A stretch of DNA of 63,887 nt, counting the filler, from Hausera hauseri (Eukaryota): the NCBI GenBank assembly GCA_046269625.1. It is 12 parts of 12 records of this genome, joined end to end, with 100 filler letters (N's around TTAATTAATTAA, not from the genome) between each part and the next. Parts side by side here need not be neighbours in the genome. Positions count along the whole stretch, not along the records: positions 8,932 to 15,570 come from JBJURY010079436.1; 11 more parts are not named here. One strand, given 5' to 3'. Below the pieces are notes generated by a model. That model was not told the DNA's origin and made no database searches. It was given only the letters and a program-made list of their open reading frames with translations. The translations under genes and the position numbers were made by a program. Positions within the stretch are counted from its first letter, which is position 1, and each line of letters starts with the position of its first letter. This document shows positions 953 to 55,649 of the stretch, one piece after another.

Positions 953-3900
953 CTGGCTGGGGACCGTGCGTGCTCGCCGCCGCTGCATCACATCCCCTTT
1001 CCTTTTTATTTTTTCCAACCATAAGCACATTTATACGTTCAGTGCGTGTATATACTGTCGCTTTTGATATACTTCAATCATTTTCGTCGCTGGATTCCAA
1101 TATCAAATCCTATATCACAAATTCTTGTTTCCGCACACTCAAAAAGGACGTCAACTTCAAGCCGCCTTCTACAACTTATCAATACAGTCACCGAACACTA
1201 AAGACCTATCAGACAAAAGGTCAGACCACTGTCAATTCGTAGACGAAAAGCCGTTAAATCAGAGTTCAATGAACTCAAAACGGCTGTCATCATTCGAAGA
1301 TCAAAATCACCATGCGCTTCACCATTGCATGTAGTAACAAAGAAAGATGACACTTACAGACCACGTGGAGACTATCGGCAGTAAAACAACCTAACAGCCT
1401 TGGATTCTTACCCTTTACCTCTCATAAAGGTATCCTGCATAGGCTAACCAATACTAATAGGTAATTTATAACTGATTTGCATAAAGCTTATTATCAAATT
1501 CCGGTTGCACCTAATGATATTCCAAAAACTGCTGTTATTACTCCATTTGGCCTCTATGAATATATCTTTATGCCGTTTGGTTTACGTAGTGCTTCCCAAA
1601 CTTTTAATCAACACATTGATACCGTCCTCTCAGGCTTTGACGTTGCTCATACATATATTGATGACAAATTAGTTGCCTTCACATTTGTTAAACAACATCA
1701 AGAACACCTCCGTATTATCTTTCACAGACTACATCACGGCAATTTGCAAGTTAATTTCTCCAAGTGTCATGTCTTTTGAAAACGTGTTAGTTTCCTAGGT
1801 TACATTATCAATCCTCAAGGCCACTCTCCACAACCGGATCGACTACAGCAATTGAAAAACATAATGCTACCAACGACTACTACGGATATGAGGAGTGTCT
1901 TAGGCACACTCCATTTCATCCACAAATACGTACCGCACTGTTTTGAGCTTACAGCACCTTTCGCACATCCATCATCCGAAAAAAAGAGGCAGTTGATCCA
2001 CTGGATTCCTGATTTAGCAACCAAATGTGATCACTTATGCGAAGGCCTAAAAACCGTTGAAATACTGGCCTATCCAAAACCCAGTGCATATCTCATACTT
2101 ACCACCGATGCCCCTACCACATTTACTGGTTCAATACTACACCAGATTTCTAACGGCGTCGATGAACCATTAGAATTTTACTCCAGGAAACTTACAGAAC
2201 CCGAAAGCCGTTACTCAACAATTGACCGTGAGTTACTTTCCATAGTTCTGGCAGTAAAACATTTCAAACACCTACTTTACTCTCGTCCATTTGTTATTCA
2301 AACTGACCACAAGTCTTTCCTGTATATCATGTCGTTAAAACAACCATCACCGAGGCAAGAACGATATATATCACACCTGTCTACCTTAGTTTTGTTTTAG
2401 AATACATTTTAGGTATAGACAATTTGGTAGCAGATTTTCTATGAGGTCGGTTGGCCCTATTACAGTTCAGCCAAATTTCTCATTCGAAGTCTTAAAGGCC
2501 AATCAACCGTCTGCTGACTTCCTTAGCTCTCAAATCATTTGAACTCATTGGTGGAACTGCTTTTCGTACGTCGAATTCCGGTAATAAAAAGATCATTCTA
2601 ACGAAAGATCATTCATACGAAAGCCAACCTTGCTTCATACGCATTCCATCATCCAGGTTCGAAAGCAACCTTCCGCCTGCTTCAACATCATATAGTTTTG
2701 CCATCAATGCGCAAAGATGTACGGGGCTGGGTTAAGAAATACGTAGCCTGTCAAAAATACAAAATCAGCAAACACCTTAAACCGCCCCATTACCATTTTC
2801 CCTGTACATCACGTTTTCATACGGTTCATCTTGATGTCGTTGGTCTTTTACCTTCTGACAACGGATATCCATATATTCTTACTATGATGGATCGTGCTTC
2901 TCTCTGTCCTAAAGCCGTTCCTCTTTGTTCAACAATTACTGATTCAGTAGCCGACGCCTTTATAAAAATCTGGATCAATTGTTTTGGTTCCCTACGTTAC
3001 ATAATAACGAATCAAGGCCCGCAATTTGAATCGGAATTCTTCAAATCATTTGCTAAACGCTTGTGGATATCCCATTTTCACACAACACCGTATCATCCTC
3101 AAGCAAATGGCCTCCTTGAAAGGTTCCATCGAACAATGAAAATTTCCTTAAAAATCTTGGCTGACAATCATCGTAATTGGACGTTCATTCTACCATTTGT
3201 TCTACTATCGTGGCTAAACACACCCTCAAACACTGCCGGTTATGCTCCAGCCCAGGCACTCTTTGGGACTCCAATTTGAGCTTTATTTGAACTCTCTGAT
3301 CTCGACGACAACCACACAGGAGAAAACATTCGTGCAGCACAATCTCACTTCATCGAGGTCCGCTCAGACTCCTTCTGCCTCCTCTTCAACAATAACAAAT
3401 TGTACATTCCGAAGGACTTGTACACCGTCAAGTTCGGCTGAAGGATCAATTGCCTTCGGATTTTAGACCTCAATATGTTGGCCCATACAAACTGCTGAAT
3501 TTCTCATCTCATACAGATACCACCTTACGCCAAGATAAACCTTACAACGTCCACATTATTAATCGGAAGCCTGCTTCTTCATTGATGACAATCTGGGTGC
3601 CAATTCTACCTGCAATTCAAACTCAACTCCTACTTCTTCCGATTTTCTAAATGACTTTGCGCCGTTGCAGCAATCACCTTTCTGCCTCTCCCTTTCATCA
3701 TCGCCATCACGTTCTTCACCTCCATTACTTCATCGACTGTTTCATCGCCTTCAATTGCATAGCCTCTTTTGCTTGATTTATTCTCCTCAACACCCTCATC
3801 AGTTTCATCACAAGCAATACCACACATTGAACCAGATAATCTCACAAAACTTCCATCACAAAATGTCACTCAACAGCCAAGGACAAATCAATCAAGTAAG

Positions 3901-4169
3901 GCACGCAGATTGACATTTAGCACCTACAGTAAAGAAAAGTTCTTTGATGGTACACAACGCCTGACATACCAAAACTGATTAGGCACTAAAAACTATTCTG
4001 TTACGATTAATTGTTTTATCTTTATTGTTTCTTTCATTCCTCCTTTTGCCTTTATATAGTTCTCTTCTGTCACGTGGGGTGATGTGGTACTGCGTTTGCG
4101 GGAATAACTTGTTTCTCCACCAGAGTGACAAAAATGAAGTCGGTCGGAAAAACTCGAACTAGAATGGAC
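953..4169 (+). mobile_element. Degenerate Ty3/Gypsy LTR retrotransposon (CsRN1-like), gag-protease deleted
   Basis: Domain order RT-RNaseH-integrase. Closely similar to the element at 41821-45910. Possible PPT/3'LTR start (GGGGTGA|TGTGG) near 4076-4087. Confidence 0.9.
1120..3600 (+). pseudogene. pol: Gypsy pol: RT, RNase H, integrase, with frameshifts and stops
   Basis: RT: AYYQIPVAPNDIPKTAVITPFGLYEY, MPFGL, YIDD. RNase H: LTTDA, FYSRKL, YSTIDRELL, TDHK. Integrase: HLDVVG, NQGPQF, TTPYHPQANGLLERFHRT, GPY. Confidence 0.93.
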
Positions 4170-8831: not shown

Positions 8832-9014
8832 NNNNNNNNNNNNNNNNNNNNNNNNNNNNNNNNNNNNNNNNNNNNTTAATTAATTAANNNNNNNNNNNNN
8901 NNNNNNNNNNNNNNNNNNNNNNNNNNNNNNNCATTTTCAAAATATCATCAAATCGTTGACTAAAATCTAAATGCAGAGCATCCAAGTGCTCACAATAGGA
9001 TAGAATGTTTTGTA

Positions 9015-9083
9015 TTCACCACCGCCCCCTGGATCCTTGCAGCGCCCACCAGGGGGCGGTAGCGCCCACTTTGGGAATCCCTG
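9015..9083 (-). mobile_element. hAT (Charlie-like) transposon terminus
   Basis: Minus strand begins CAGGGATTCCCAAAGTGGGCGCTACCGCCCCCTGG, with an internal inverted repeat ACCGCCCCCTGG..CCAGGGGGCGGT. Confidence 0.6.
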
Positions 9084-9233
9084 ATTTAGAATTACAAATA
9101 AATAAAACATGAAAACAATGAAAAAATTTTGTTATCAACAACAATCATGTGATGCATTGTAACTTGAATAAAAAGAAACCACTAGAACCAATTCGTTATT
9201 ATATTCAAATTTTATCAAATTAACCTTTCATTA

Positions 9234-11386
9234 ATGAATAGACAGTCAAAGATGGAATTTTTGAAGACGCGCTTCCAGATGTAGAAAGTGATGTTGAAGG
9301 TGGAAATGACATGTGATAATAGTGACAGTGGTGTTTTTTTTTCTATTGTCCGTAGAATGCAAAAACATACTTGTCATTTACCGAGCGATTCAGATTCCAG
9401 TGATAGTGCTAGAGATATTCCAATAACTAATGATACAAGTTTATGGTCTAAACATGACAAAATTCCTATCGTGGAGAATTTTATAGGAAACTCAGGAGTA
9501 AAGCAATTTTCTGCAAATCATTCAAGAATGAATGAAGTTTTGTTTTTTGTAAAGGATTTTTTTGAAATGCTTTCTCGTGAAACCAACTTATATCGACATC
9601 AAAATGAAAGTATGTGAAAAGAACACGTTAGAACTGCAAAATGGGTAGATGTAGGAAAAAAGGAAATCAAAGAAATTTGGCTATTGTTGTCCTTATGGTA
9701 CATGTAAGAAAAAAATCATATTAAAGATTACTGGTCTACTGATCCATTCTTAGAAACGTCGGTGTTTTAAAAACTTACGTGGTGCGTCCATTAAGTACCT
9801 GACCTGACTTAGAAGAAATGACGTTAGAGATCTGAATATTTTTGTGGAATTATATACATATATCTATGTTTTTATTGTTGTCTTTGTTTGACTCTTGCAT
9901 TTCTAGATTACAATATTATGCATGATTTGGAATTTTTGTTAAAGTGATGATTTCGGATGTCGAGTATCGCAGCGTTATCAAGTTATTCGTTCTGTAAATG
10001 AAAACGTGCAATGACATCTTTGCCCTTTTGCAGCCTACATAACTGCATGATGCCCCATCACTGACCACTGTAAAATATTGTATGAGAGAATTCAATGGAA
10101 GGCGCACCCCAGATTTTCATGAAGAGAGTGAAGGTCAACCAAAAGAAATTTCGAATTCTGTTGATGAAAAATTAAAGAAAACCATTCAAGAAGAGCGTTA
10201 AATTGCCACGAGATTGCTTCCATCCCATCTGAATATCTCTAAAGGTGCTGTCAATGTGAGATTCAAGGCGTTTGGCATCGGAAAACTGCTCCAAATTTGT
10301 CCCGCGCTTCGTGACTGGTGAAATGATGCAGAAGCGACTGCAGAGCTGCATGGTGAGACTTTCCTGGCCAATTTAATAACAGGACGAAACCTCACTCTGC
10401 ATTTATTTGCCTGAAACGAAACGTGAATCAGCATAGTGGAAGTTTCCGAGTGAAAAGCCAACCTTGAAGATGCGAAAAGGAACAAATCATGGACGGGACA
10501 ACAAAGGCATCATTATCAATAGCTTTGAGGATAAAGGCATCACAATTAACTCTATCTATTACAGCCAGCTCGTTGCAACTGTCAGAAAGAAAAGAAGGAA
10601 GCAGAAGAACACTCCGCTCTGATTTCTCCATGACAATGCGCCAGTGCACACAGCGGGCATTTCTCAGGAACTGACGCTTGTGGATCATCCACCATACAGT
10701 TCAGATTGGGCACCGAGTGATTTTTCCTTTTCAGACATCTCAAGAAGCATTTGCGATGAACATCATTCACCTCTGAAGAATAATTGAAGACCTCTGTGGA
10801 GAATTTCTTCGCCAAGTGCTACCTGAATTCTTCAGAAATGCTTTTTCTGAGTTGATTACTCGTTGGCAAAGTGTGTGGTGCGAAATGAACTTTATGTAGA
10901 AAAATAATGCCTATATATGTTGTTCAGCTTGTATCGAAAAGGAGCTCTTTCGGATATTGATTTCTGTTTCATGTTGGGTACTTAACGGGCGCACCACTTA
11001 TGAGCCGGAACAGATTTGAGCAAATATTACAATCGCTTAATTTCAATAATAATGCATTGCAAAATAATTTCGAAGATAATTACGAAAATTGTCAGCAAAG
11101 AAAAGCAAAAATACTGCAAACAATAAGAGCAGCGATACTCGATATATTTGCAAATTTTGTTTATTACCTCTCCATCATGGAACTTGTTTTCAAATATATC
11201 ATACCAGAAAAAATACTGGAAGTAGCATTATATATGCCCAGAAAATTTTATTAAAACATTAAATGTACTTTAATAAATGTTACAGTCTGTTATGAATATA
11301 TAATCACTTTTTTGTTGAATAATTACAAAAATATGCGAGAATTCAGGCTATATCCTTTTCCCTGCATACCGTCTTCAATGTGTTAA
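9234..11386 (+). mobile_element. Internally deleted piggyBac transposon, interrupted by a mariner
   Basis: ETNLY, KWVDV..EIK, DYWSTDPFLET..KL|MSRNRFEQIL motifs. C-terminal Cys-rich TRYICKFCLLPLHHGTCFQIYHT. Element end followed by TTAA at 11383-11386. The catalytic DDD core is missing. Confidence 0.85.
9778..10998 (+). mobile_element. Decayed mariner element, about 1.22 kb, with TIRs and TA duplication
   Basis: TIRs CGTGGTGCGTCCATTAAGTACC and GGTACTTAACGGGCGCACCACT, with TA at 9776-9777 and 10999-11000. Transposase remnants include FLHDNAPVH and HPPYSSDWAPSDFFLF. Confidence 0.92.
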
Positions 11387-12162
11387 AGGTAGAGGACTGT
11401 TCAATCTTCTTCTTTTAATTAGGTGTTGATTAAATACTTCCGTATTTTTCTTTACACAGTATTGAACAATTTAATCGTTGCTGCTCGGGGAAGAGTGGGT
11501 ATGATTCTGATCTTACATAGGTGTGAGTAGGTAATGTGTTGCAAGAGAAGTAAAAACTGTTTAATTATTTCTTTACTTACTTACTGGTTAGTATCCTACT
11601 TTTTACTTGGGATTTACTGAGGACTCCGTCAGGTCGCTTTTACCTGGTCGGAAACTTTCCAATGTTATTTAACTTTATTTACTTAAACTTGTTAGACAGA
11701 TAATAGACAAAAATGTAAACGAAATTATAACTCTAGTTTACGTACGAAATTACGATAATATTAGCAAACAAAAACACAATAAAATAAATGATCTTACGTG
11801 AAGTCATCATCAATGGTAAAAACTACTGTGTTCATGCACAAAGATCATACTTTATATAGTGTTCTGATTGTAATTACATTAAATAAATAAAGTAACATCC
11901 TGCGGAAAATTCCATTAAATCAGGTTCAGAAAATCATGTCACATATAAAAATTCACATGGTCATTATCAACTAATACAAATTATACATAGCAATCATGTA
12001 ATAATCAGTAATGGCACATAATGTACATAATGAAGTCCATAAATAATCATGCGTCTCTCAGATGATACATTAATTTTATCAAAGGTCAAGAACTGACCAC
12101 TACATGTCACTAAATGTTGCACAATATTCGACGGGGGTTCTGAGAAAATTGTCCCAAATTGA

Positions 12163-13596
12163 TCATTGGTCCAATATGATGGGCCTGTGGACATATTTGC
12201 CTGTGGATCTGGATTTGTACCGTATGGAATCTGGCTCGTATACTTCATCATCTAATACCAGTGTTTCATCCACCTGAATTTTACGTTTTCTTCCACTTTG
12301 TGATGCTGTAGGTGCTTTTCGCAGCGTATCAGAGGCCGCACTTTGGGTGATATATTCGTCGGACCATTTTATTTGTTTATATATTGATTGATAGCACTGC
12401 GCTAAGGCAGTGCTTCGGAGAGAGAAGCCCTTTGTATCATAAAATTTGCGGGCCAACTCTTTGTAGGTATTGGACGATAACTGATACCGACGGATAACAT
12501 CCTCGTGATATAAAATATCACGTACTCCCGCTATCCGTCGGATTGGACATTTGAAATGGTTCACAACCATTTCCACCACGTCGGCTCCAATAATTACTTT
12601 ATCCGTTATAACTTCTGTCACTTTCCTGTAAAAATCCACGGGATCAAGTTGATTGTTAATACTGGATTCTGTGAGGCCAGTTATATGCGTATCAAAATTA
12701 TTGATACGCTGTCTTGGTGTAATGATTCCATATAGTAGGGTGTCTCCGTTTATTGTTAGAATTGAAGCTTCAATAGGTTGAAGCTGATTCCACTGGTCAT
12801 AGGCCAAATTTACGGCTGCTATGACCATGTCTTTGTCTGAGACTTTTTCCAATCTTCTATAGGGGACTGTTCTGTATTTAACATAGTCAGGTTCTGGGAG
12901 GTTGAAGCATATTCCCTCTGGTAGGCCGGGATAAAATTTTTCTCGCTTGATTACTTCCATTGCCAGAATTACACGGTTTGTGCATGAACGGATTTTAAAA
13001 GTGTTATTCTGGAGAAAAGTATAATCGAACGCTAACGCATGTTCCGGGTCCACGTTAATTAAATCACCTTTAATAGCTGTCTTCTTATCTGTGGTCTTTA
13101 TCTGAATCTGACCTACCACGCCATACAAATTCATAGAATGAAATCGATCAGGCAGGATTATAATGTCATCGAGAAGAAATGACATAGCTTTAGTTAGTTG
13201 CATTATAGCAAATGATCGGTTGGCCATACTATACCCCTTGAGGTTGTTGGGGATTTGTTGGGTTTGAGGATAATTTAAACTGGTCACATTATTGTTGTGA
13301 GATACGAAATATTGATTTGAAGGGTTAGCGTTAATCATGTGACTTTTGACATTGCTATACCAATGTTTCGAACGGTTGATGGTCTGGATCTGATGGAACG
13401 TTGTAGCTGAGACTGCAAAAACAAGAGTCAATACATAATTTATCATGATACTTAGACACAATACAACGGTTATCAAACACACCAAATGGGTAATCGTTGT
13501 GGTTTGACTGTTACTATTTCTATTTAGTAAGATAAGTCGATGTTCGGCTATCTTTCTACTTAGGGTTGCGTATATTGCAATCCCTGTTACTAATTG
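12163..13596 (-). CDS. Retroelement extra ORF, in-frame after a single UGA: hydrophobic segment plus ISG20/REX4-like DEDDh-fold domain with degenerate catalytic residues
   Basis: The frame is open from 13596 to 12163. ASILTINGDTLLYGIITPRQRINNFDTHITGLT..KVIIGAD aligns by eye with the REX/ISG20 pattern SxVNxxGxxLYDxxxxPxxxIxDYRTxxSGxT..KxxVGHD. Confidence 0.7.
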   Translation of the reverse strand, partial: QLVTGIAIYATLSRKIAEHRLILLNRNSNSQTTTITHLVCLITVVLCLSIMINYVLTLVFAVSATTFHQIQTINRSKHWYSNVKSHMINANPSNQYFVSHNNNVTSLNYPQTQQIPNNLKGYSMANRSFAIMQLTKAMSFLLDDIIILPDRFHSMNLYGVVGQIQIKTTDKKTAIKGDLINVDPEHALAFDYTFLQNNTFKIRSCTNRVILAMEVIKREKFYPGLPEGICFNLPEPDYVKYRTVPYRRLEKVSDKDMVIAAVNLAYDQWNQLQPIEASILTINGDTLLYGIITPRQRINNFDTHITGLTESSINNQLDPVDFYRKVTEVITDKVIIGADVVEMVVNHFKCPIRRIAGVRDILYHEDVIRRYQLSSNTYKELARKFYDTKGFSLRSTALAQCYQSIYKQIKWSDEYITQSAASDTLRKAPTASQSGRKRKIQVDETLVLDDEVYEPDSIRYKSRSTGKYVHRPIILDQ

Positions 13597-13599
13597 TCA
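13591..13599 (-). promoter_or_regulatory. Candidate programmed stop-codon readthrough signal UGA-CAA-UUA
   Basis: It is the only stop in about 1135 in-frame codons, and its 3' context matches the CARYYA consensus. Confidence 0.7.
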
Positions 13600-15570
13600 G
13601 CTGGGGTTATCCGTATCTAACGGATTCGTTAGATTTCGCATATCTATTCTCACCCAGCTCCTTTTTCGCTTGTGTCGCCTGTATACAATTTTACTCACTA
13701 ATATCAATATTATTATGAAGACTACAGGGGTTATTAAACTTATGCATATTATTTCTAATTGGGAATGACTATATACTGCTCGTGTGGGTTTGGGTGTTAT
13801 CTTGTGGCTAATTGTGTTAGTTTTATGCGATACGTCTGTCTCATACATTACTCTCGTGATTGCTGTCATTATTTTAGTAGAAATTACCTTATTTTTATCA
13901 TCTAGCAATTGTAAAATTATTGTATATCGAGTATTAGGGTCTAATGCTGCGCATGGTACTACTAAATCATCTGGAGTTATGGTTCCCTTGGCTACCACTG
14001 TATCTTGTTTCTTACAACTAAACTTAATTTTTGCAAAATCTAAATCCGGTCTGACCGAAATGATTAATGCAGTTGGAGCTGCTACTACTGTGACATTTCC
14101 CCAGATTGATCGCTTTGTACAATAATAAGATGTGTAAGGTTTCACTAAAATGGTCATATCCGTTTTATTATTCAAGGACTGGGCAGGTGGTACCATAATC
14201 TTGTTCGGTATTTCATCATACTCCTTCTGGTTCTTGTATCGTATGAACATCGTCGGTCCTTTTCTCTGTATTTTATTTTTCAATTTTCCATGTTCTTTCC
14301 GTGACAGAGAATATTTTACCTCGTATATTTTTCCTCTTATTACGTTACAACAAACTTGTTGTTGTTCATCCGTTAATTCACATTTCACTAGTCTTTGTTT
14401 ACTTCCCAGTTCTTTTATGGATATTGTTATCCATCTAATGTATTCTAATTCTATCGTACTACTAATTTCTAGGCAACTTCGTCCACTTTTAAATCCCATC
14501 GGTCTTATTATTAGTTGAGCGAGTATTATTGCATCTAATAGGGTTTCATTCATTTCATGTCTATTAGGAACTCGTATATACCTGTGAAATTTGGTATATA
14601 GACTATAATAATAGTCTCCTTTCTTCTTTATGAGCGTAAGATGTACTTCATGTGTTCCTGAAGTGTCTATTAGACATAACGTTTCATTTGTCGACGAGCG
14701 TAGCATACAGTCATTATACCGCTCATTCGAGTTCTTTTCATAACCATAGATTGGGGTTGTTTGTATCCTTATAATATACTCGCCAGGCATTCGTCTGGTA
14801 GTATACCAGCGAATGCATTTTTGGCCTTTCATGGAGTACGTTATTTGGTATTTTAGGCTTTTTAACCATAGGTCTTCATTTATCGCCGTGGCATGTCGTA
14901 TCTTTGCTTGTTCAATTTCCTGTTCCGTCATCTGTCCTGCTATTTGGGGAATCATAAAGATAGTCGTTAATAATAGGCTCTTTATTAGCCAATGCAATCC
15001 GGGGATTGAACTTTCTTCTTTTACTTTTTCGGTAATACTTAATACAAGTTCCTTTTCGCCTTTTCTTAACTCGCTTCTTCGGGCTGCTGGCTTACATCTG
15101 TTAACATGGACCTTCACCGATGTATTGTTTTTCCTTAAAGATATGTTTGGCATATTTACCTTTTCTACTTCATATGGACCCTTATATGGTCTATCTAACT
15201 TAGATGTCTTACCTTTCTTAAGTGCCGGAGAATATAACATCACTTGATCGCCTATTTTGATTTTTGGTTGCTTAGTCTTTTTATCGTAATATTTCTTATA
15301 TTTGGATTTATAATCCTCTTGGTTCCCGCAAATCGTTTTGTAGGCCAATTGTAAACGTTCTTGCATTAATTGTTTGTAGTCTTCCATTTCCATCAAATGT
15401 GAGACAGGTCTCACATTAAAGTCTAAATCAATGGGTAATCTTGCATCCCGCAAATACATTAGATAAAAGGGGGTTTCTTTAGTGGCTTCATGCACTGACG
15501 TTCGATTTACGAATACACACGCATTGACATACTCATCCCAATCGTCTTGCCTAGTATTGACCACCGTTTG
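13597..15570 (-). CDS. Gypsy integrase C-terminus fused to a type I membrane protein (signal peptide, Cys/FN3-like ectodomain, TM); 5' truncated by contig end
   Basis: Integrase end DWDEYV..VHEATKETPFYLMYLRDARLPID and GDQV..SKLDRPYKGPYEV..VHVNRCKP. Then hydrophobic WLIKSLLLTTIFMIPQIAG, FN3-like ALDPNTRYTIILQ, TM LEIICISLITPVVFIIILILVSKIVY and basic RRHKRKR. Confidence 0.88.
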   Translation of the reverse strand, partial: QTVVNTRQDDWDEYVNACVFVNRTSVHEATKETPFYLMYLRDARLPIDLDFNVRPVSHLMEMEDYKQLMQERLQLAYKTICGNQEDYKSKYKKYYDKKTKQPKIKIGDQVMLYSPALKKGKTSKLDRPYKGPYEVEKVNMPNISLRKNNTSVKVHVNRCKPAARRSELRKGEKELVLSITEKVKEESSIPGLHWLIKSLLLTTIFMIPQIAGQMTEQEIEQAKIRHATAINEDLWLKSLKYQITYSMKGQKCIRWYTTRRMPGEYIIRIQTTPIYGYEKNSNERYNDCMLRSSTNETLCLIDTSGTHEVHLTLIKKKGDYYYSLYTKFHRYIRVPNRHEMNETLLDAIILAQLIIRPMGFKSGRSCLEISSTIELEYIRWITISIKELGSKQRLVKCELTDEQQQVCCNVIRGKIYEVKYSLSRKEHGKLKNKIQRKGPTMFIRYKNQKEYDEIPNKIMVPPAQSLNNKTDMTILVKPYTSYYCTKRSIWGNVTVVAAPTALIISVRPDLDFAKIKFSCKKQDTVVAKGTITPDDLVVPCAALDPNTRYTIILQLLDDKNKVISTKIMTAITRVMYETDVSHKTNTISHKITPKPTRAVYSHSQLEIICISLITPVVFIIILILVSKIVYRRHKRKRSWVRIDMRNLTNPLDTDNPS

Positions 15571-15670: not shown

Positions 15671-15855
15671 AGAAGTATTCACTCTGCAGTTCATTTAGAA
15701 ACTGGACTCAGTCTATTTTCTCACTGCATATTTCATTTGTAAGCCGTTTAATTTCAGCTTCTAAATCTATTTTGTAATACTAAATATATAGATAATTTCG
15801 GAGAACAGATTTGAAATCATACCATTTGTCGTACTATTCCTTGAAACAACGCAAT
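15671..15855 (-). pseudogene. 5' end of a small-intron gene, decayed paralogue of 55328-55582
   Basis: (ATT)ALFQGIVRQM-[GT..AG]-YYKIDLEAEIKRLTNEICSEKID*VQFLNELQSEYF. Start codon mutated and one in-frame stop. Confidence 0.6.
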
Positions 15856-16038
15856 GCTTTTTTCAAGGCCCATATTTATAGCCAACCACCAAAATTAAAA
15901 CAAAAATTTTTTGACACAAACCGACCAATCCGATTACACCAATTTGGGGTGAGAATAGTAAAACCCAGTCTGCCGCAGAAATCTCACAACCAAAATTTTA
16001 ACAAATTTTACGCGCCAAATTCAAATTTTAAACTGCTG

Positions 16039-20719: not shown

Positions 20720-20881
20720 NNNNNNNNNNNNNNNNNNNNNNNNNNNNNNNNNNNNNNNNNNNNTTAATTAATTAANNNNNNNNNNNNNNNNNNNNNNNNN
20801 NNNNNNNNNNNNNNNNNNNTAATAATAGTCAGTTGTTTTGCTTGTGTTATAAACAAAAAATGATTTTGTAGCAGATAAATA

Positions 20882-21100
20882 ATGGCGATATGATTTATAG
20901 ATATTCAAGCTTTCCAAAATGATAATGCCCGGTACACAATAAAGGAATTATACATTATGGAGGTCGGTAACATTTTCAAACCACTTGTATACATATTCAA
21001 GCCCGATATTGTGTAGAAAGGCCTGACGGAAAAAGCGAAAATTACAAATGGATTTCTCTTTAGACATTGCCACGGACTTCATTAGTATGAAGGCAATTAA
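20882..21100 (+). pseudogene. Small DEDD-exonuclease-like accessory gene of the kind found beside Maverick-type pPolB
   Basis: MAI*FIDIQAF..YTIKELYI..YIFKP..*..FLFRHCHGLH*YEG, with stops at likely Trp positions. The family call is recalled, not searched. Confidence 0.5.
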
Positions 21101-21131
21101 TAAATACGAGTAGGCAATAATTTTAATAATC

Positions 21132-21560
21132 ATGGAAATAGTTATTCAATTGAAGCAATGGCAAATTTTTAATAGATTATCAATTTCAGACTTGGTACAA
21201 TGGTGGAAAGTACTTGATACTAATCTGGTTGCGAGAGCAGCAGGTGATTTTGGATTTAAAGAAGATTTAGCGTCAATAGCATTGACAACAACAGATTACA
21301 GCTCTATAGAAAATATAATTATCGTGTTAAATCAAATGTACATTCACCGATTGTATGATACAAATTACTTTATTACTGTTGAAAAAGTACGCGGTGAATT
21401 AACGAACTTAAAAGAGAAAATAATGGAAAAAGTACGAGACTGTCAGTTTGTGTGTACTATGGAAACAAAGAATAGCGGATACGGTATTCTTAATGTGCGG
21501 CCATCTTGTTGTTTGTCAAATGTGTTTTACCAAAGTAACAACCCAATATCCAGAATATAG
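21132..21560 (+). CDS. Hypothetical protein, 142 aa
   Basis: ATG-initiated ORF with globular composition inside the pPolB-associated gene block. Confidence 0.45.
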   Translation: MEIVIQLKQWQIFNRLSISDLVQWWKVLDTNLVARAAGDFGFKEDLASIALTTTDYSSIENIIIVLNQMYIHRLYDTNYFITVEKVRGELTNLKEKIMEKVRDCQFVCTMETKNSGYGILNVRPSCCLSNVFYQSNNPISRI

Positions 21561-21765
21561 ATATGCTATAATGGAAATTGTACACATTTATTACGAACGA
21601 CACCTTCTCCAATAACTAAACGTGGGCTTCAATGACGTGGAGGTAATTTGTATCATTGTAATATGAAACAATACTCATAAAGTAAATGTCTATTGTTTAC
21701 AATGAAAACAAACCTTTTATATCAATAGAGATGCTATGTTAGTTCACGTTTGTCTTTTTTAAACA

Positions 21766-22209
21766 ATGTATTTGGAAAACAGTTCAGCAGGTGGTAACAG
21801 CAGTCTCTCAATAAAGCCACGGTACAGCGAATATTCGCTCAGAAATTCCCGGTTGTATTATGAATACATTTTACATTATCTGCGCAACGCTATTCAATTG
21901 CCCTTGACGCAAATGGTCAAAATCAAACCGGTGAAATATGGTCTATTGGTGAAAAAGATCAGCGACGATGATTTGGATACAATGGAATATATAATTAGAA
22001 AAGTTAACAAAGATTTGGCGTTGAGTAACGATATCCAAGATACATTGTCGATTTTTCTCAAAGGAAATATGGAGAAAATTGTCAGTTCATATGGTGGAGA
22101 ACCAGCAGTTGCAGCAAAAGCAGTTTTGCCACCGGAAGATGCTAAAGGCTGCTTGACATTGAAGCTCAAAGGATTCAAGGAAAGGAGCGGCGTCAAATCC
22201 CAAATATAG
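21766..22209 (+). CDS. Hypothetical protein (possible start at MVKIKPV, about 21913), convergent with pPolB
   Basis: Open frame with globular composition, followed by AATAAA near 22280. Confidence 0.45.
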   Translation: MYLENSSAGGNSSLSIKPRYSEYSLRNSRLYYEYILHYLRNAIQLPLTQMVKIKPVKYGLLVKKISDDDLDTMEYIIRKVNKDLALSNDIQDTLSIFLKGNMEKIVSSYGGEPAVAAKAVLPPEDAKGCLTLKLKGFKERSGVKSQI

Positions 22210-22521
22210 AAAATGGGGAATTTTAATGATTTAACTGACTTTGTGTGCTTTTGTGATTTTATTTTTTCTCCGATCAGTAAATAAATGTATTCGTGTTACA
22301 TATTTTGTTTTCTCGTGCAAGGTTATTGTTTTACTTTTACTTCTATCTTACTTAATAATAATAAGCTAAGTAAGTAACCGAAAACAAAACACTGAACAAA
22401 ATACGTTGTTGAAATATAAAAACGATACACATAGGATAATTGTCAATGATTGTCACAGTAACTGAACTGAACTGAACTGACTTGTGTGAACCGACAGAGC
22501 ACCGATTGTTTCGACGTGCGT

Positions 22522-25500
22522 TTATTTTAGCCGCCGATGTCCATACGCCCAACTCTTATTTCCCCCAACCCACTTTCACTTATCATCGTTACATGACAAA
22601 ACGACTTTTGCACTAGTTATTGTGTACAGCTGGTGCTCAATTTATCGGATGATCGTTTGAGACACAACAGCCACTGAGTGTCCTCCTCCTTCTGCTGCTG
22701 CTGCTTCTTCATATATACAGCGATAATCACCGTGGTTGATTTCCGTCTGTCTAAGTCCAACTCCTTTTCCCCGAATTTTCGGTCCACAATTCGTCAGAAG
22801 ACTGTAGCACTTTGGGCGTAGGAATATCCATTCCCGATGGAGAACCCTGCCTTCACTTTCATCCTTGAAGCAGCCGATTTTTTGTTTTTCTGTTGTACAA
22901 CGGATGATCCGGTGGATAGTTTGACGTGTTTAATAATCCATCTGACTGCATTTCCTGCAGTAGCTGTTCGCGATTGACTTTTTTCAGCCGCAGGAAAAAA
23001 CTGTCTGTGTCACCGGCAATTATACTAATGTAACAGCCGTTAAACATTTTCCAGTAATGTACCAAATCGCGATACTGTTGCTCATACATACGCAACTTTC
23101 TCAGGTCTAATACCACTTGTCCGATATAACTTGGCTGGTCCAGAACGACTGCTTCTCTGTTTAACAGCACCGCAACCAATCCATCGGCAATGTGTATTGA
23201 CCGCCTGAACTGTGCTTTGCTCGTGCACGTGACCAACCGCTTTTCGCTGTTGCATAGGTGTACACTGAGACGCTTTTTCAGATTCTTCACGGATTTCCAT
23301 AGAGGAAATTGTTTTTCAGCTTGCAGTAGTCCTTTTCGAACTTTGTACAGGCTGCGGCTCGTTTTCTCGAATTTCCATCTATGTACGCCTTGAATATGGG
23401 AGCCTGAGCAAATCGGACTGCATGATGCAGCTGTGTGACGCGAACACTGAGCTGCATGTAGAACTGTAGCAAACGCCAATGGACCACGTACTTCAGCTTC
23501 AGTTCATGCGTCATGGGCAGTTTTTTCACTTTGAGCCTGGCGGACATTGGTTAAATGGTGCGATCGGTAAATCGTCCAAAACGTCATGCAGCTCGTCTGG
23601 TACCACGAGTTCGACCTCCATCACGTATCCGACTGAGCCTGCCATGTCTTTTTGTGGTAGCTTGACCATCATGTCGTACAGATCTTGTCTGTCGACTACA
23701 CATTCGAATGAACCGTACGGCAAGAGTTGCGAAAGCTCCAGCCGTACATGTTATTAATACGGACCTGATGTTTGTTGACAAATACCATGCCACCGCGAAT
23801 ACCAATATCAAACAGCCGGTATATTTACGGGTCTTGCATCAGGTCAGTGTCTCGATCCAGTGATATTAGAGCTGACGCCCAACTCATTCCCAGTATGGAA
23901 TAAAAAATAAGTGGCTCCAGCCTATCTTCAGCCAAAGCTTTCGCTCAAAACGCTTTAAACACATCGGCTAATAAGTACACGTCCAGTTTAAGATACTGGA
24001 GCATGTAATCCAACATCTTTCTACAGCCGAGTTCTGCCAACATTTCTGTGCTTTTCGGTATTCATCTTTGCGATACCTGTCCATAGCGGTGTAATTCCTC
24101 TGCTGTCCGGAGTCGCTAATACGATGTTGCAAAATAATATGGAAATATGCCTCTGCTGCGTGAAATATGTGCGGGAAACTGAGTCAATGTTAGCGGCACA
24201 TCCGACAAGGCATTCACCACCTTTGCCAATGATTCATTAAGAAAGTGCAATGAATCAAGGAAGCGTACCTGGAACCGGTTTATACGAGCAGACAGTGACA
24301 GGTATTTCTCCATCGTAGTCTCCATCGTTTATTGTCCATTTCAAAATACGGTGACAATCATAACCCCTGAAGTTATAAAATACCACCGGTATGAATGGCC
24401 GCACACGCCTTGCCAAATTGTATGAATTACATGCTGCTCTTAGATATCGACCAGTAAAATGATCGTGATCCAGTACGAGTCGTTCCAGTGCGTCGAACGG
24501 TAATATTTTATTGCACAGGTATCATTCATCTGTGACTGAAAACATCCGGCGTTCATCTTCATCTGTTCACATCAAGGACTTGTTGCTATTTCTACTGTAC
24601 CATGGCGCGATTTCAGTTTCCACTGTGGTTTGCTACTTCTGCAAGAAATTGCGTACCCAATTCCATCCGTGGAAAACATAATATTGAGGTTGACCTGCGG
24701 CTTTTATTAAGACAACTAATATACCGACAGCGATCGGAACATGTTTTTGGTCATATATGTTGTGCCATGGTATGATATTTTCAATATCGGCATATACTAC
24801 ATATACCGGACTGTCGGTTTTTGACAAATCAGTGAACCTGAGTTCCTGTTTGACGGGCATAACATACATTAGTATTCCTGAAGAATTTCGTCTGCACAGA
24901 ATCACGTGTTTAGTCCATGTTGTTTCCAATTTGAATCCATGAAGACGTACAGGAAACCATTTACACTGTATCCATTTTTGGAGGAAATGGTCATGTTCTA
25001 TGTTTAGTAATCTGTCCAGATTTGTCACTACAACGTAATGGTACTTTTTTTTTGTTCCAGTAGCAACAAATTTACTGAGCGGCCATTTGGGTTCCGACTA
25101 CGATAGATGATATCAATATGAGGATTTTTGTAAATTTCTTCATCGGCTGGTATTTCCACGATTGCGTTGTACCGGAACACGTTGATTGTCAGTGTCGGAT
25201 TACGCAGTTCAAAAGCCAGAATGGATTTCAGTTTCACCGGCATCCAGATTTCATCGAAATCAAATTCGGAAAAATATTTCTTATACTGTTTTGGACGAGA
25301 TGCACTATGTCTGTCCACTTGGTCATATTTCAATACCGCCAGAATACTGTAAAGAAAATCGTATTTATCATTAGTATTTTTTACATTTACTACCACCAGA
25401 GACTGCTTCAGATCTGCAGATCTCGGTATGAATTATGTCACTTGACTTTATTATGATAAAGCCGAGGGTGACAATTCGTATAATTCGCCATCCACTATCC

Positions 25501-26353: not shown

Positions 26354-29300
26354 GCTACCATATGTAGAGTTGTTTCTTCACGTGGCTTCTGTGTTGTTAT
26401 ATCTGTGGCAAGTATATTTTCTATGTCTTCGCCTTTTTGTAATCCTGGATAAATACTTTCTGCTAAAGTGCATAAGGTAATTGTCTGATTTTGCTTTCCT
26501 GATGCATTAATTTGTATTATGTACTCTGTCTGACGTTTTAATGCGTTATATTCTACTTGTCGTGTAATTTGTATAAGTTTTACTTTTTATCTGTCATATA
26601 AGGTTCGACAGTTTATTTTTATATAGTAGTTTAATTCTTTGTCAACAATGAACACTATTCTCTACTGATGGACCGAAAATCTTATAGGTATATCTTTAAT
26701 TTCTGTTTTAGGTATATTGTTTGTTGTAGTAATTCGGGCGGTCGACATTTTAGTCGGGGTTTCCATAGAAATTTTCCAAATTCTATTTTCTGGATAGTAG
26801 GGTCGTAATTGTATACTTGATTGATTAGGCCGTATCGCGTATAAGTCAAATTTTACTTTGATTTCTTGGTTCACGGGTATTTTACAACACAGATGTTGCA
26901 CATCTGCATGAATGAAACAATATTTTATTTTCGGAGTTGGTCCTATTGCTGCCTTAAATACGATACAGATTTCCCGATTGACGGTTAGCTCCGTCCGAGT
27001 ATTTACTTGAATACATTGTCTTTCCTTATTCACGGAGATTCTATGGATATTTTAGTTTAGTAGTCTTATGGCTGGATTAGTAGATCGTAACATTTTGTTA
27101 ACTTTTATTCCATGCTGCCTATTCCCAGAGGGATGACTAGTTTGAATTGTGGTTTTGTTTCATTAATTTTAGATAAATTCGGTAGGTACAGAGGATAGGT
27201 CAGATTAAAAGTATGTCCGAAATCTATGTCGCAACATTGCGTACGTTCTCCGGGCTCAAAATCACAATTCTTTGCTTCTTTTGTTATTACATCGACTACG
27301 ACAATTTGGATCCTTCCAGAATTTTGGTGTGGTTTCCGTGTTTTAAATCCAACGCATGTGGAGTTAGGTGAATAATAATGGATCCTTATTGCTTGTAATA
27401 ATCTTGTATCTTCTTGTCTTTAATTTGCTTCGACTGTTGATTTCTTTCCGTTTTAATAACCTCCAATCTTGCTCCACTTTTCCAAATTCTGTAACTGTTG
27501 TACCACTCTTTAGCTTGTGTTCTCGGGATATAGGAGGCAATTAACGATAATGCTAAAACTATTTCAACGTACGATATTGGTCTATTGATTATGAAGGATA
27601 TTTTCCTTTCCCCTTTTCCTTGATTCGAGCTGGATCGCAAATTAGAGCGTTTTTCAGGTCTTATTTCTGTTTTAACAATTCTCTGTATGGATACTGTTTC
27701 TTCTTCACCATTTGTATTAATGTGTACAGTAGTTGGTGTGGTTTGAATAACTTCATAAGGTCCTCGTCCTGTACGAGTAAGTTTTAATGATGTACCTTTC
27801 TTTGCAACTAGATAGCGCACGTAGACCCAGTTCCCTTTTTCTAAATCGTGGGGTTTGGCCTTCTTATAGTATTGTTTCCTAAACTGTTTTTGATACTCAA
27901 GAGTGAGCGTTTTTGCTATATCCCAACATTTTGGTAATCGTATTTGCAAGTCTTTTGCGAAATTTGGTTCTAAATCTTCTGAATTTGCGTGATAAGGAGT
28001 CATCCCTAAGTCCGTAGGTAATATTGCTTCGTGTCCATACATCATAAAGAGTGACGTAAATCAGGTGGCCGGGTGTAAAGTAGTATTGATAGCAAATTGC
28101 GTTCCTTCTAAAAATTTGTCCCAGTACTTTTGATCCTTTGCTAGTACAGTCGATAAGATTCGTGTAACTGTTGCATTATACGTTTGACCATCCCACTACA
28201 CTGAGGGTGATATGCAGTAGTAGTTAGTCGTTTGATTTCGAAAATTTTAGAAATTTTGTCAAATAATTCTCTTGTAAAAATTCTTCCTCTATCGGTTAGT
28301 ATTTGATCGGATGGTCCGTATCTGCAGATGATTTTCCTTACTACTGCGTCGGCTAGAGTTTCCGCCTTTTGATCGATTAGTGCGATCAATTCCACAAAGT
28401 GTGTTAAACAATCTACGCACGTCAGAATATATTTGTTATTTTTATGTGTTGTATGTAAAGGTCCTACTATATTCATAGACATAGCTTGTATAGGCCTGTC
28501 TGGTACATCGATTGGTTTTAATTCTGCTATATAGTTTTCACTTTCTTTTGCTTTGTTGCACAGACTTCATAGGCGTCTACCCAGTTCTTTACGTCGATAT
28601 AAACGCTTGGCCAGTAATACTTATTTAATATTCTTTCTAATGTTTTCTTCCATGCCATATGTCCAGCTAAATGTGAATCGTGTTCGGCCATTAACACTTC
28701 CGTCCGTAATCCTTTTGGAATAACTACCAGTTTCCATCCCTTTCGTTCGTAATATAAAATATTATCCAGATTTGATGTATAATATTTGTGTACGTGTCTC
28801 TGTAAGTGTTTCTTTAGTTGACGTCCTCTTGGTATCTCATCTTGCTCGTCAAATTTGACTATTTGTTGGATAACTTTATCTTTAGCTTGTTCTGCAGAAA
28901 TTTCGATTGCTTTATTTAGTGTTAGGGTCTGCTGTTGCTCGACTAATTTTTCGAGCTGGGCTTTCTTCATGGTCGTAATTGTGCTTGTCTTTGTTTTAAG
29001 ACTTGATAAAGCGTCTGCGTCAATGTGTTTGTTTCCAGGTTTATATTGGAATTCAATGTTGTATCGGGAGATTTCCTCAATTCACCGATTTAATCTACAT
29101 GTTGGGTTATTTGCCCGTCCTTTAACGTTGTAACCGCCTTGGGATTGGTAACTATAATAATTTTCTGCCCATAAACGTAGACATTGAAATGCCTTAGGGC
29201 TTCTTTTACGGCTAGAGTCTCAAGTTCAGATACTGAATAATTTTTCCCAGCTTTTTTATGCGATCGTCCTCCATATGCAATTGGATGCTCCAATTCTTCG

Positions 29301-31967
29301 CCTTCTCGTTTCTGAGCGAATTCGTAACCAATTCCTTCTTTACTTGAATCTGTTTTAATTATAAATTGTAAATTAAAATCGGGTTATCTTAACACTGGTT
29401 CACTTGTTAAAAATTTCTTCATTTCGTCGAATGCTTTCTGTTCAACATCGGTCCATCTCCATTTGATACCTTTTTTAATAGCCGATATAGTGGCGCGTTT
29501 ATTCTCGAATTGTCTGGCACATATTTCGCATAATATCCACATAAGCCTAACCAATGTCTCAACTCTTTCTGGTTCTGGGGTTCCATACAATCCAATATTT
29601 TATTTATTAAAGATTTATCTGGTTTTAACCCTCCTTCAAAGACTATATGTCCTAGATAAGATGCAGCATTTTGTGCCCATTTAGATTTTTTTGGGTTCAA
29701 TTTCAATCCTGCCTGTTCCAACCGCATAAGTGTGTTTTGATATCATTTTGGTGTTCGTCTTCTCTTTTTGATGCTATCATTACATCGTTTAAATATGCGA
29801 ACGCGTGATCTAGTCCCATTAACATCTTATTCATCATTCTGGTGAAAATAGCTGGGCCGGTTACACCGAACGGCATGACGTTAGATTCGTAAACTCCGTC
29901 GTGTGTCTTGAACGCTGTTTTATAGTGGTCATCTTCTTCAATTTCCACTTGCCAGTATCCGGATTGTAAATCTAGTGTGGTAAACCATTNNNNNNNNNNG
30001 CTTCTTTCACTGATGGTAACGGAAATGAGCCTTTCATCATGAGCGTATTTAGGGCTCTGTAATCTATACAGAATTGGTGTTTAGTGTACCTTTTTTCTTA
30101 ACCATGAGTATTGGTGAGTACCAAGATCGATAGCTTGGTCGTATTCTGTCAGCTTTTAACATGCGTTCTACCTCTTTGGTTGTTTCAGGCCTTAATGAAT
30201 GCGGTGGTGGATACCATTTAGGCATCTTTTGCTCTTCCAAGTCAATTTCATCATTGGAGCCAGGTTTCTTTTTTAATGGAATCGTTAATCTTAAGGTTTT
30301 TGCTATGCCTATATCTTCTTCATTTTGTGCAATAATCGACTTATATCTAAATGGTAATTCGTAAAACTGACAATACGCTTCTGGTGAAAATTTTATTTCG
30401 ACGTGAGGTGGAAATTCAGCATATTTATATGGTTTTTCTTCGATTATTATTGTTGACACCTTATAAGTATGACCCAATGTAGTATTGGCGTACGACGTTA
30501 CGGGAGTTGATGCATTATTTACTAACCTGATTGGTACTCTTCCTGTCGTTAATCTTGTCAAAATATTACTAAGTATAATATTTGGATTAACGTCTTCTTG
30601 TGGCTCAAAATATACTGGTTGGTCGTCCTCTTCGCGGATTTGAGCATAAATTAGCATTTTGGTTCTAGGCGGTATATTTTCGTCGACGGGAATCCATACT
30701 TCTCCCTGTTTGCTTTCTTTCATTGTCTTGATACCTTTTACTGGTCCGAGTTCTATTAGTTTTCCGGTTTGTAAGTTTATTGCGATATTGTTAATTGCTT
30801 TAGTATATCGCAACCCAACACTACGTCATCGGTTAGTTGGTCCATTATGGCAAACTCGTGTCGGAGGTTTTGGCCCATTAATTGAACTAGGGGGCTCCAC
30901 TTAAATTTCGGTTTGGATTCTTGTCCGAAGACTCCGATGCTACCTGGATTTGATGACGATGCAGGCTGCAGTTGTTTCCGTAATATAGGCGGTATTGATT
31001 CTAATTTTATAAATGAGTCTCTGATCCTGTGTCGATTAAAGTATAGACTTCCCAATCTTCAATGGTAATCTTTGTGAAGGGTCCCTCTTCCATAACTGTT
31101 CCATAACAACTTGATATGTCTTTTGGTCTTTTAATTGAAGAATTTTGTGTCCGTTTATTGTTATTTCTGGTGATAAGATGATATTCTCGGTCAACTGTTT
31201 CAGTTCTTCGTTAGGGTATAAGTCGTTGATTGCTACACCAATTGCATTGTTTCTAATTAACGGTTCTTGTACTATAGAATTTTTGAACGATTTCACTCCT
31301 TGTGTTCCCCAGACTGTTGATCTGGTCTCTATATTGCGAGCTATTCTCGGTGAGTACAATACCCTATGGTCATCTTCCGCTCGTCTTTGACTAGTGATTT
31401 GCATTTTCTTTAATACTCCGTATTGTTTTGTTCCTTCATAAGGATCTTCACAGTTAAAAGGTTTCTGACAGAATGCCGATCTATATGACACCATAGATGT
31501 TTTGTCGCAATCCTCGTATATTGGAGTTGTTGGCGGTATGATGGGCAAAGGTGCCTTAATTACTGAATACATTTTGTGTCTATTTGGTCCGAGGATTACT
31601 TCTTCCTTAAGCTCATCATCATCTGAATTATTTCTTCGCGTCATATGTTTCTTAACCTTGCGTTTCAGCCGAAATATGGCTCTTGCTCGTCGTTTGTAAT
31701 TATAGTAGCCGACATGACGTTCAACGTCATATTTCCATCCATTTTCCTCATATGCTTTAAGCATTTTGCCGAATGGGATGATGATTGCGGTTAAGATTTT
31801 GCAGGAAAATCCTGTTAATGTAAATATTTCATACCCATTTTTAACTGCTTGGATTACCGCTTTTACTAGTTGTACTAAGAAATAGATTGATAAAATTTAG
31901 ATGCGGCTTGCCCAAAAATTAAAAATCTTCCCCATATCTTGTAGAGTATTTCGGTAGTTACCCAGAT
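26354..31967 (-). mobile_element. Decayed Ty3/Gypsy element with integrase-fused ectodomain
   Basis: Protease LIDTGS/VVLGCDIL, dUTPase-like insert, RT (LDLQSGYWQV, MPFG, YLND), RNase H (YSVSELETLAV), integrase (HDSHLAGHM, TDRG, TTAYHPQ), then signal-like IVLALSLIASYIPRTQA and Cys/FN3-like modules. Confidence 0.92.
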
Positions 31968-55582: not shown

Positions 55583-55649
55583 GCTATTTACACACCAATA
55601 TTTTTACCCAACCACCAAAATTAAAACAAAAATTTTTGGCACAAACCGA

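Follow-up and report, generated by a model that had tools for sequence, protein, structure and literature searches.

The reading frame and its surroundings

The DNA analyzed here, called the window below, is a stretch of 63,887 nt in which 12 unlinked contigs of Hausera hauseri (GCA_046269625.1) were joined by linkers of the form N44-TTAATTAATTAA-N44. Because the window was built in this way, its other elements are not genomic neighbors of the frame at 12163-15570, the subject of this study. All features given below are on the minus strand. Translation from 15570 to 12163 gave 657 codons, a TGA (13599-13597), 477 further codons and a final TGA, which bears out the claim of an earlier note on this DNA that a frame of about 1135 codons contains a single stop. 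Residues ahead of the first TGA are numbered A1-657 and those past it are numbered as B residues. With the exception of a TC microsatellite contig, the longest open run on the other 11 contigs was at most 297 codons. The same note had called the polyprotein intact. This was too strong: the contig end cuts the frame, and the integrase core is absent, as are gag, RT and the 5′ LTR, because the contig ends at 15570.

The frame opens with the C-terminal part of an integrase (A1-165; 15076..15570), whose 5′ end is lost at the contig end. It is of the Gypsy type with a GPY/F module, the GPY lying at 15180. It aligned with the integrase tail of a second element in the window (E = 4.9e-16), which itself has rve and H2C2 matches. 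Thus, the earlier identification of an integrase C-terminus with its GPY module was confirmed, and Pfam gave no match for A1-165.

Downstream of the frame, an LTR-like unit was found at 11663..11897. It has TGTTA...TAACA ends with 20-nt inverted arms, a TATA at 11856 and an AATAAA at 11679. The true 5′ boundary may be farther up, near 12120. The window holds no second copy of this unit, and no clear polypurine tract (no purine run of at least 9 nt) precedes it. Past the unit there are decayed DNA-transposon fragments, and lesions are frequent among the elements of the window. A tandem element copy 3′ of the unit was considered and is not supported, because no gag-like frame was found there. 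Rfam gave one chance match only, and no tRNA was found.

The surface protein and a second Gypsy element

Past the integrase C-terminus, the frame encodes a signal-like stretch, an ectodomain of about 390 aa (A213-604), a TM helix and a tail of 32 aa. The internal signal-like segment noticed earlier is present in frame with the integrase (A189-212; 14935..15006), but it is only moderately hydrophobic (19-mer KD 1.55). The TM helix (A605-625; 13696..13758) has a KD of 3.27, and the next 15 residues have a net charge of +7. The basic cytoplasmic tail (13600..13695) has nine K+R and three D+E. The ectodomain, the helix with its basic stop-transfer motif and the short tail therefore agree with the earlier description.

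The ectodomain has eight cysteines and a tandem-repeat build, and it is beta-rich by prediction. Its two cysteine repeats of about 110 aa each, A231-345 (14536..14880) and A346-460 (14191..14535), were similar to each other with a score of 54, which was reached in 0 of 1000 shuffles. They are followed by a putative FN3-like domain (A491-572; 13855..14100), weakly suggested by PDB sequence matches: the best was fibronectin 1fnf (E = 0.087), and five of the 13 matches were named fibronectin. Pfam gave no fn3 match for this segment. A profile of the four repeat units of both elements had an SGT1 domain as its sole match (E = 0.087), which we did not accept.

The second element (26354..31967) is a decayed Gypsy element with RT and integrase. 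The order RT-RNaseH-IN is visible in this related element alone, as the cargo contig ends at 15570 without RT. The integrase tail of the second element and, in frame with it, a hydrophobic stretch at the position equivalent to A189-212 together occupy 27386-28060, and a broken homologous ectodomain comes next (27105-27419, 26662-27051 and 26443-26586), with the contig ending ahead of any TM. The integrases of the two elements are about 27% identical. Cysteine repeat 2 matched 26662-27051 with a score of 69 (0 of 1000 shuffles), the top among 250 control pieces, of which the next scored 47. The similarity between the first repeats of the two elements was marginal (38 of 1000 shuffles), and none was detected between repeat 1 and the second element's repeat 2 (915 of 1000). 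The signal stretches (625 of 1000) and the FN3-like pieces (675 of 1000) of the two elements also showed no significant pairwise similarity. Three cysteines are invariant over the four repeat units. Since a homologous ectodomain lies at the same place in a second, RT-bearing Gypsy element, the cargo is element-borne. This, together with the LTR-like unit 3′ of the cargo, upholds its earlier assignment to a Gypsy lineage. The recent activity proposed with it was not borne out: there is one copy of this cargo family in the window and no LTR pair.

We found no relative of A195-657, either among 1.84 billion protein representatives or in the PDB sequences. The AlphaFold models of the surface protein and of the protein past the stop had pLDDT values of 35.5 and 34.7, and no match in the Foldseek and VIA searches had an E below 0.001 or a Z above 5.0. 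As both models are of low confidence, these blanks are uninformative on the novelty of the folds.

The in-frame UGA and the protein behind it

The first TGA is followed by CAATTA, which is a CARYYA readthrough context (13591..13599). In the window, CARYYA came after 22 of the 6645 stop triplets (0.33%); for in-frame codon pairs the count was 8 of 1134. A role of this motif in readthrough has been described (PMC4132726, PMC2194720); a mammalian reporter showed about 15% readthrough at UGA-CARYYA (PMC4132726), and PMC2194720 describes a yeast test in which the in-frame stop of Tca2 was not read through. Here, as in the TMV type, the motif stands immediately 3′ of the stop and the frame past it is open, with 50 codons ahead of the first Met, M51 (13446; P about 0.015). 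The hydrophobic stretch that had been noticed past the UGA is present (B38-64; 13405..13485; KD 2.63), but it has 27 aa instead of 28 and begins 37 codons past the stop. Thirteen of its residues precede M51, and a hydrophobic 13-mer of this kind was matched in 0 of 4000 shuffles. The gap that separates the two membrane segments, in which the TGA lies, is 70 codons long and makes up about 6% of the frame. RNA structure at the junction was not significant (z = -1.55).

The content past the UGA had been listed as this stretch and a nuclease-like domain, which overlooked a beta-rich domain of about 180 aa between them (B66-245; 12862..13401). Its low-confidence model had a best Z of 4.7, to cupin/jelly-roll-like folds, which is not significant. 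The next domain (B254-415; 12352..12837) resembles the DEDDh fold of ISG20/REX4 and lacks most catalytic residues. The likeness reported earlier was found again, but it is weak: the best sequence match was ISG20L2 7yw5 (E = 0.012, and 1.5 with a single-sequence query), phrog_192 gave an E of 0.07, and DEDDh enzymes made up 16 of 44 Foldseek rows, all of them weak and non-significant. Pfam gave no RNase_T match, and indeed nothing above noise for either half of the frame; NCBIfam gave nothing useful. The frame ends with a C-terminal tail (12163..12351), a basic RKRK cluster (12291) and the final stop.

The second protein is conserved at the protein level in one relative, P0001 (55% identity), the only match among 5356 candidates. 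The identity is 54% in the beta-rich domain, about 60% in the nuclease-like domain and 71% over B254-335, and P0001 retains the non-catalytic motifs as well. The catalytic D-x-E of motif I and the His/Asp of motif III are absent from both proteins, with motifs I and III placed by spacing, beyond the printed alignment, and the residues taken from PMC10899777. In motif II one acid is left, one position off. The basic cluster of the tail is present in P0001 too. P0001 opens at its own Met and shows no similarity to B1-65, only from B66 on. No relative was found among shorter proteins or among longer ones, the latter being a weak test for a fused form, and none of 33 pattern matches in prokaryotic genomes was confirmed.

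On sequence grounds, programmed readthrough is the best reading of TGA-CAATTA. The context, the open spacer and the hydrophobic residues ahead of M51 favor this proposal of the earlier note, but the own Met of P0001 fits a separate ORF as well. The TGA may instead be a true terminator, with the second protein made from M51 as a separate gene (by a subgenomic or spliced RNA or by reinitiation), with a short signal peptide of its own and the shared frame due to chance. M51 has an A at -3, a usable start context, and its own signal-like stretch of 14 aa; in LTR elements, a third ORF is typically a spliced unit of its own (PMC5408684); and no fused relative turned up among the longer proteins, weak as that test is. 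We regard this as unlikely, as it leaves the CARYYA, the 50 open codons and the pre-M51 hydrophobic residues unexplained, and the start of P0001 was assigned by a gene caller, on a contig of 1561 bases. A nonsense lesion in a single copy of an element that otherwise makes one continuous integrase-surface-nuclease polyprotein would account as well as readthrough does for the open spacer and for the hydrophobic stretch that begins ahead of M51, and elements in the window often carry lesions. However, CARYYA would be expected after only about 0.3-0.7% of random lesions, and chance would put about 6% of lesions into the gap that separates the membrane segments, so that this explanation appears less likely still.

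Origin and possible role of the element

Turning from the stop to the nature of the locus, the ectodomain might be a highly diverged viral fusogen or the partner subunit of one, beta-rich and class II-like. The element would then be a retrovirus of errantivirus-like character whose Env is of an undescribed type. The Env position, the signal-ectodomain-TM layout, the conserved cysteines and the predicted beta-richness agree with this, and Gypsy elements with Env are widespread (PMC13524379). Nevertheless, we consider it improbable: no F-like, gB-like or class II family matched in Pfam, the PDB sequences or the 1.84 billion proteins. The ectodomain has about 390 aa, eight cysteines and a tandem-repeat build, and it contains no canonical furin site (R-x-K/R-R), with one minimal RxxR at A330; the sole canonical site is in the cytoplasmic tail. 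Fold searches with the ectodomain model (pLDDT 35.5) were uninformative as to a fusogen. Of the receptor- or adhesin-like and non-fusogen character claimed earlier, the first part is weakly favored by the fibronectin match and the second is not borne out. In our judgment it is very improbable that the locus, instead of being a mobile LTR element, is a domesticated host gene or else a Ginger-like DNA transposon that has a Gypsy-type integrase and no RT. RT is absent from the contig, which carries one end of the element, the frame is unusually clean, and Ginger transposons reportedly have Gypsy-like integrases. Against this, the second element, the closest relative present in the window, combines RT and integrase in Gypsy order with the same cargo, the LTR-like unit with TATA and AATAAA lies 3′ of the cargo, and the frame is uninterrupted.

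The explanation that we prefer, tentatively and as a whole at barely short of an even chance, joins a Gypsy 3′ end, a surface protein, a leaky UGA and a pseudo-nuclease. The frame would belong to a Ty3/Gypsy LTR retrotransposon, young or well preserved, of which it forms the 3′ end. The pol frame of this element would run past the integrase to include a type I membrane protein, presumably cleaved free at the ER via the internal signal. The ectodomain may be built of three modules of the beta-sandwich type, namely the two repeats, each with disulfide bonds, and the FN3-like domain; we infer that it is most likely an attachment or adhesion protein and not a known fusogen. The majority of ribosomes would halt at the UGA and yield a surface protein with a short cytoplasmic tail, and a minority would pass UGA-CAAUUA and add the second membrane segment, the beta-rich domain and a catalytically dead domain of the DEDDh fold, probably a nucleic-acid binder. 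If the membrane is crossed once, the readthrough part would be lumenal or extracellular. Passage of the element between touching cells is its likely purpose; the minor product would be an accessory factor that binds nucleic acid. Some observations count against this explanation: an unusually basic ectodomain (pI 9.5), even charges (+3/+3) on the two sides of the second hydrophobic stretch, and the awkward pairing of a lumenal nuclease fold with an NLS-like basic cluster. It is possible, though doubtful, that these elements form an old, diversified animal Gypsy lineage with a third kind of surface protein, in which a receptor-like adhesin of tandem beta-sandwiches (FN3-type), fused to the integrase, replaces the fusogen. 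A leaky stop would then add a small share of a dead, nucleic-acid-binding exonuclease, either membrane-linked or secreted, allowing the element to travel via cell contacts and to shield or steer its RNA.

To our knowledge, the Gypsy surface proteins described so far are viral fusogens (F-like or gB-like) or short FAST-like proteins. The present architecture hints at cell-to-cell movement without a known viral fusion protein. If so, a modular, receptor-like ectodomain in two distant families of one genome would be a further route from retrotransposon to cell-to-cell agent, and surveys using known Env as bait would overlook such ectodomains. A dead DEDDh domain that is conserved downstream of a membrane segment would add a new type to the accessory proteins of retroelements.

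Each feature has partial counterparts in known systems. Env-carrying Gypsy elements likewise place a protein of signal-ectodomain-TM layout behind a Gypsy pol, whereas in the present element integrase and surface protein share one frame, and the surface protein has tandem cysteine repeats and an FN3-like build and shows no detectable F or gB similarity; readthrough, exonuclease and fibronectin are absent from the main text of the comparison paper on Env-type Gypsy elements. The giant Gypsy element Burro of planarians also has an env in frame inside its polyprotein, but that env is F-like and lies between gag and pol (PMC6431247), not past the integrase. According to PMC11952523, Env-less LTR elements of the MDG1 group might spread from cell to cell via a non-Env membrane protein, sORF2 (FAST-like), which is a short TM protein, in contrast to the ectodomain of about 390 aa here. 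According to PMC2194720, SIRE1, a soybean Ty1/copia Sirevirus, uses an in-frame stop for access to a downstream cargo ORF; the stop of this plant Copia element lies between the pol and env-like ORFs, whereas here the surface protein is fused to pol and only past the TM tail does the stop occur. The bdelloid elements Juno and Vesta carry a DEDD-fold cargo 3′ of pol, but their ORF3 is a separate, DEDDy/RNase D-like ORF that keeps the invariant DEED and has no TM or coiled coil (PMC5408684). This combination of separate ORF, DEDDy type, intact catalytic residues and lack of a TM does not recur here; the domain is ISG20/REX4-like and stands past a membrane segment, behind a surface protein. Among cellular DEDDh exonucleases, ISG20, ISG20L2 and REX4 are the closest to B254-415 by sequence, and they differ from it and from P0001 in having the acidic D-x-E of motif I and the His/Asp of motif III.

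A frame with one internal stop

Read on the minus strand, positions 15570-12163 encode 657 residues (A, the integrase tail and surface protein), a TGA at 13599-13597, a further 477 residues (B, the second protein) and a final TGA. This frame lies on contig 8932-15570, whose end truncates it on the 5′ side and leaves no gag, protease, RT, RNase H, integrase core or 5′ LTR. In the window (1-63887), a fixed linker, N44-TTAATTAATTAA-N44, connects 12 contigs of 4-10 kb; adjacency across linkers therefore carries no meaning, and the window is not one locus. The earlier note had described an intact Gypsy polyprotein consisting of integrase, surface protein, UGA readthrough and pseudo-exonuclease. The single-stop frame is confirmed, but "intact" is too strong for a truncated frame. 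The interpretation is partly supported, and it was strengthened by a second element and by the stop context. In 10 of the 11 remaining contigs the longest open run is at most 297 codons, so the clean frame is exceptional. The eleventh contig (50763-55227) is nearly all degenerate TC microsatellite, which yields spurious long open frames. With one copy (n = 1), the cleanness of the frame gives no age for the element.

Residues A1-165 carry a GPY module. They align (E 4.9e-16, ~27% identity) to the integrase tail of a second, decayed element (contig 26354-31967, minus strand), where Pfam matches to RVT_1, Integrase_H2C2 and rve are arranged in Gypsy order; the integrase tail itself had no Pfam match. 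Further along the same minus-strand frame lie a moderately hydrophobic internal stretch (A189-212, hydrophobicity score KD 1.55), an ectodomain of about 390 residues, a TM helix (A605-625, KD 3.27) and a basic tail of 32 residues. The ectodomain has eight cysteines, four sequons, a pI of 9.5 and no canonical furin site. Its two cysteine repeats (repeat 1, A231-345; repeat 2, A346-460) align to each other with a score of 54, matched by 0 of 1000 shuffles. A profile built from two sequences of the third domain (A491-572) had fibronectin as its best match among PDB sequences (E 0.087); the 13 matches comprised five named fibronectin, six PDZ constructs and two others. Judging from the strand pattern, we read repeats 1 and 2 as probably FN3/Ig-like too. 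The surface protein had no matches among 1,835,955,588 representative proteins or among PDB sequences. As its single-sequence structure model had a pLDDT of 35.5, fold searches with it speak neither for nor against a fusogen.

An LTR-like unit of 235 bases (minus strand) lies 265 bases past the final stop, starting with TGTTA and ending with TAACA. Its 20-nt arms are 85% complementary, and it contains both a TATA box (11856) and AATAAA (11679). We infer that it is the 3′ LTR, with a start perhaps further up. Within the window we found no further copy of the unit, no purine run of at least 9 upstream of it and no gag frame beyond it. Just past it (11662-11630, minus strand), TTGG and the adjoining stretch are, to our eye, reminiscent of a tRNA primer-binding site. 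Right after the final stop (12156-12122, minus strand) there is a motif that we take to resemble the end of a Gypsy internal region and that might be the sign of a longer LTR, with its start near 12120. This motif has a C run in place of the expected purine run. The decayed fragments flanking the element's 3′ end (8932-10900) presumably resemble mariner and piggyBac transposases.

Matching cargo in a second element

The second element shares the layout of the first: its integrase tail and hydrophobic stretch lie in a single frame and are followed by broken pieces. These pieces contain a repeat pair as well (0 of 1000 shuffles), and one piece aligned to repeat 2 with a score of 69 (0 of 1000 shuffles). 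It ranked first of 250 control pieces, the next best reaching 47; the controls were stop-free pieces of at least 60 aa from outside both the microsatellite contig and the frame of the query. Three cysteines are invariant across all four repeat units (two units per element). Repeat 1 was more weakly alike across elements (38 of 1000 shuffles), and there was no significant likeness between repeat 1 and the other element's repeat 2 (915 of 1000), between the hydrophobic signal stretches (625 of 1000) or between the third-domain pieces (675 of 1000). The cargo is very probably element-borne. The second element is uninformative on the stop junction, because its contig ends before any TM. Its frame 31036-31896 had a sub-threshold Monjiviricetes_fusion match (E 0.0022, residues 1-41), probably a mere hydrophobic stretch. 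No cargo like this surface protein was detectable in the decayed Gypsy elements at 1-4169 (plus) and 41821-46132 (minus), which form a related pair (65-69% DNA identity).

Probable translation across the TGA

The TGA is followed by CAATTA, which matches CARYYA, the TMV-type readthrough signal according to excerpts of PMC2194720 and PMC4132726. The latter excerpts give about 15% readthrough for an OPRL1 reporter and similar efficiencies for UGA and UAG. CARYYA lies 3′ of 22 of the 6645 stop triplets in the window (microsatellite contig left out) and makes up 8 of the 1134 in-frame codon pairs of this frame. The 50 codons between the TGA and the first Met of B (M51) contain no stop (P about 0.015 from 5000 shuffles). 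The hydrophobicity of the 13 residues before M51 was beaten at that position by 0 of 4000 shuffles, and anywhere by 2 of 4000. RNA structure at the junction was not notable (z -1.55).

The second protein might instead be a separate ORF starting at M51: the start context there is fair, and a short stretch resembles a signal. The one relative found, P0001, starts at its own Met and has no similarity to B1-65, and a weak test found no longer, fused relative. However, the motif, the open spacer and the hydrophobic residues before M51 fit translation across the stop better than a separate ORF. If the TGA were a nonsense lesion in this copy, the open spacer would be accounted for as well as by readthrough, but CARYYA and the place of the stop would not; the stop lies between two membrane segments, in a gap of 70 codons that makes up about 6% of the frame. 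According to the excerpts of PMC2194720, the in-frame stop of Tca2 was not read through in a yeast test, so such a stop is no guarantee of readthrough. This and the unremarkable RNA structure of the junction speak against readthrough. On balance, programmed readthrough at the TGA seems rather likely.

The second protein and known systems

P0001 (ENA, 447 aa, from a 1561-base contig) was the sole relative found, with 55% identity over B66-472 (beta-rich domain 54%, nuclease-like domain 60%, B254-335 71%). This identity points to purifying selection at the protein level. A profile of B and P0001 matched ISG20L2 (7yw5) with E 0.012 over 67 positions, and Phrog_192 (DNA polymerase exonuclease subunit) matched the second protein with E 0.07. 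Among 44 listed Foldseek rows, 16 were DEDDh enzymes, but none of these was significant and many were redundant; the VIA fold search did not confirm the DEDDh likeness. Compared with the catalytic residues given in an excerpt of PMC10899777, neither homologue has D-x-E in the region of motif I or His/Asp in that of motif III, these two regions being placed by spacing; motif II keeps one acid, displaced by one position. Since the motif I and III residues are missing from both, a pseudo-nuclease is a fair reading of the C-terminal domain, conditional on the marginal fold call. Both proteins have a sequon right after the second hydrophobic stretch, which would fit a lumenal position. They also have a basic C-terminal cluster, presumably NLS-like, which would fit the cytosol or nucleus. 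The charges on the two sides of the stretch are even.

We propose a mechanism tentatively, with its chances as a whole close to balanced. Ribosomes would translate pol on through integrase, and an internal signal would send the ectodomain into the ER. Stopping at the TGA would give a type I adhesin-like membrane protein, and minority readthrough would add a second membrane segment, the beta domain and the dead-nuclease module. The surface protein might aid the element's passage between touching cells, and the minor product might bind nucleic acid. The latter could be likened, by analogy, to pestivirus Erns, an RNase on the viral envelope.

Every ingredient of the element has a precedent. The precedents are Gypsy elements with F-type and gB-type Env (PMC13524379), pol/env readthrough in SIRE1 (PMC2194720), an in-frame env in Burro (PMC6431247), sORF2 (PMC11952523), Ginger transposons (PMC2836005) and the bdelloid DEDDy ORF3s, which keep their invariant residues and lack a TM (PMC5408684). 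We file the element among cargo-carrying Gypsy elements, apart from the errantivirus class and from bdelloid-type DEDDy ORF3. Among the matches listed from the open-access literature (titles and abstract starts), there was no FN3-like surface protein fused to integrase and no ISG20/REX4-like cargo in a Gypsy element; a family entry in subscription papers, Repbase or supplements, outside that literature, could lower the novelty.

Elsewhere in the window, broken frames at 20820-26253 (minus) and 32068-36700 (plus), which we take to resemble Polinton-type DNA polymerase B genes, gave no Pfam match for the pieces tested. Frame 32959-33852 contains two Cys/His-rich units upstream of a tandem repeat (33441-33549, 18 bp x 5.8 copies) that encodes an Ala/Gln/Pro-rich stretch. 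A BIR (inhibitor of apoptosis) domain lies at a contig end (20289-20771, plus, E 1.1e-07). Finally, a 360-base interspersed repeat occurs as 82% identical copies at 15673-16029 and 55400-55756, at or near two contig starts.
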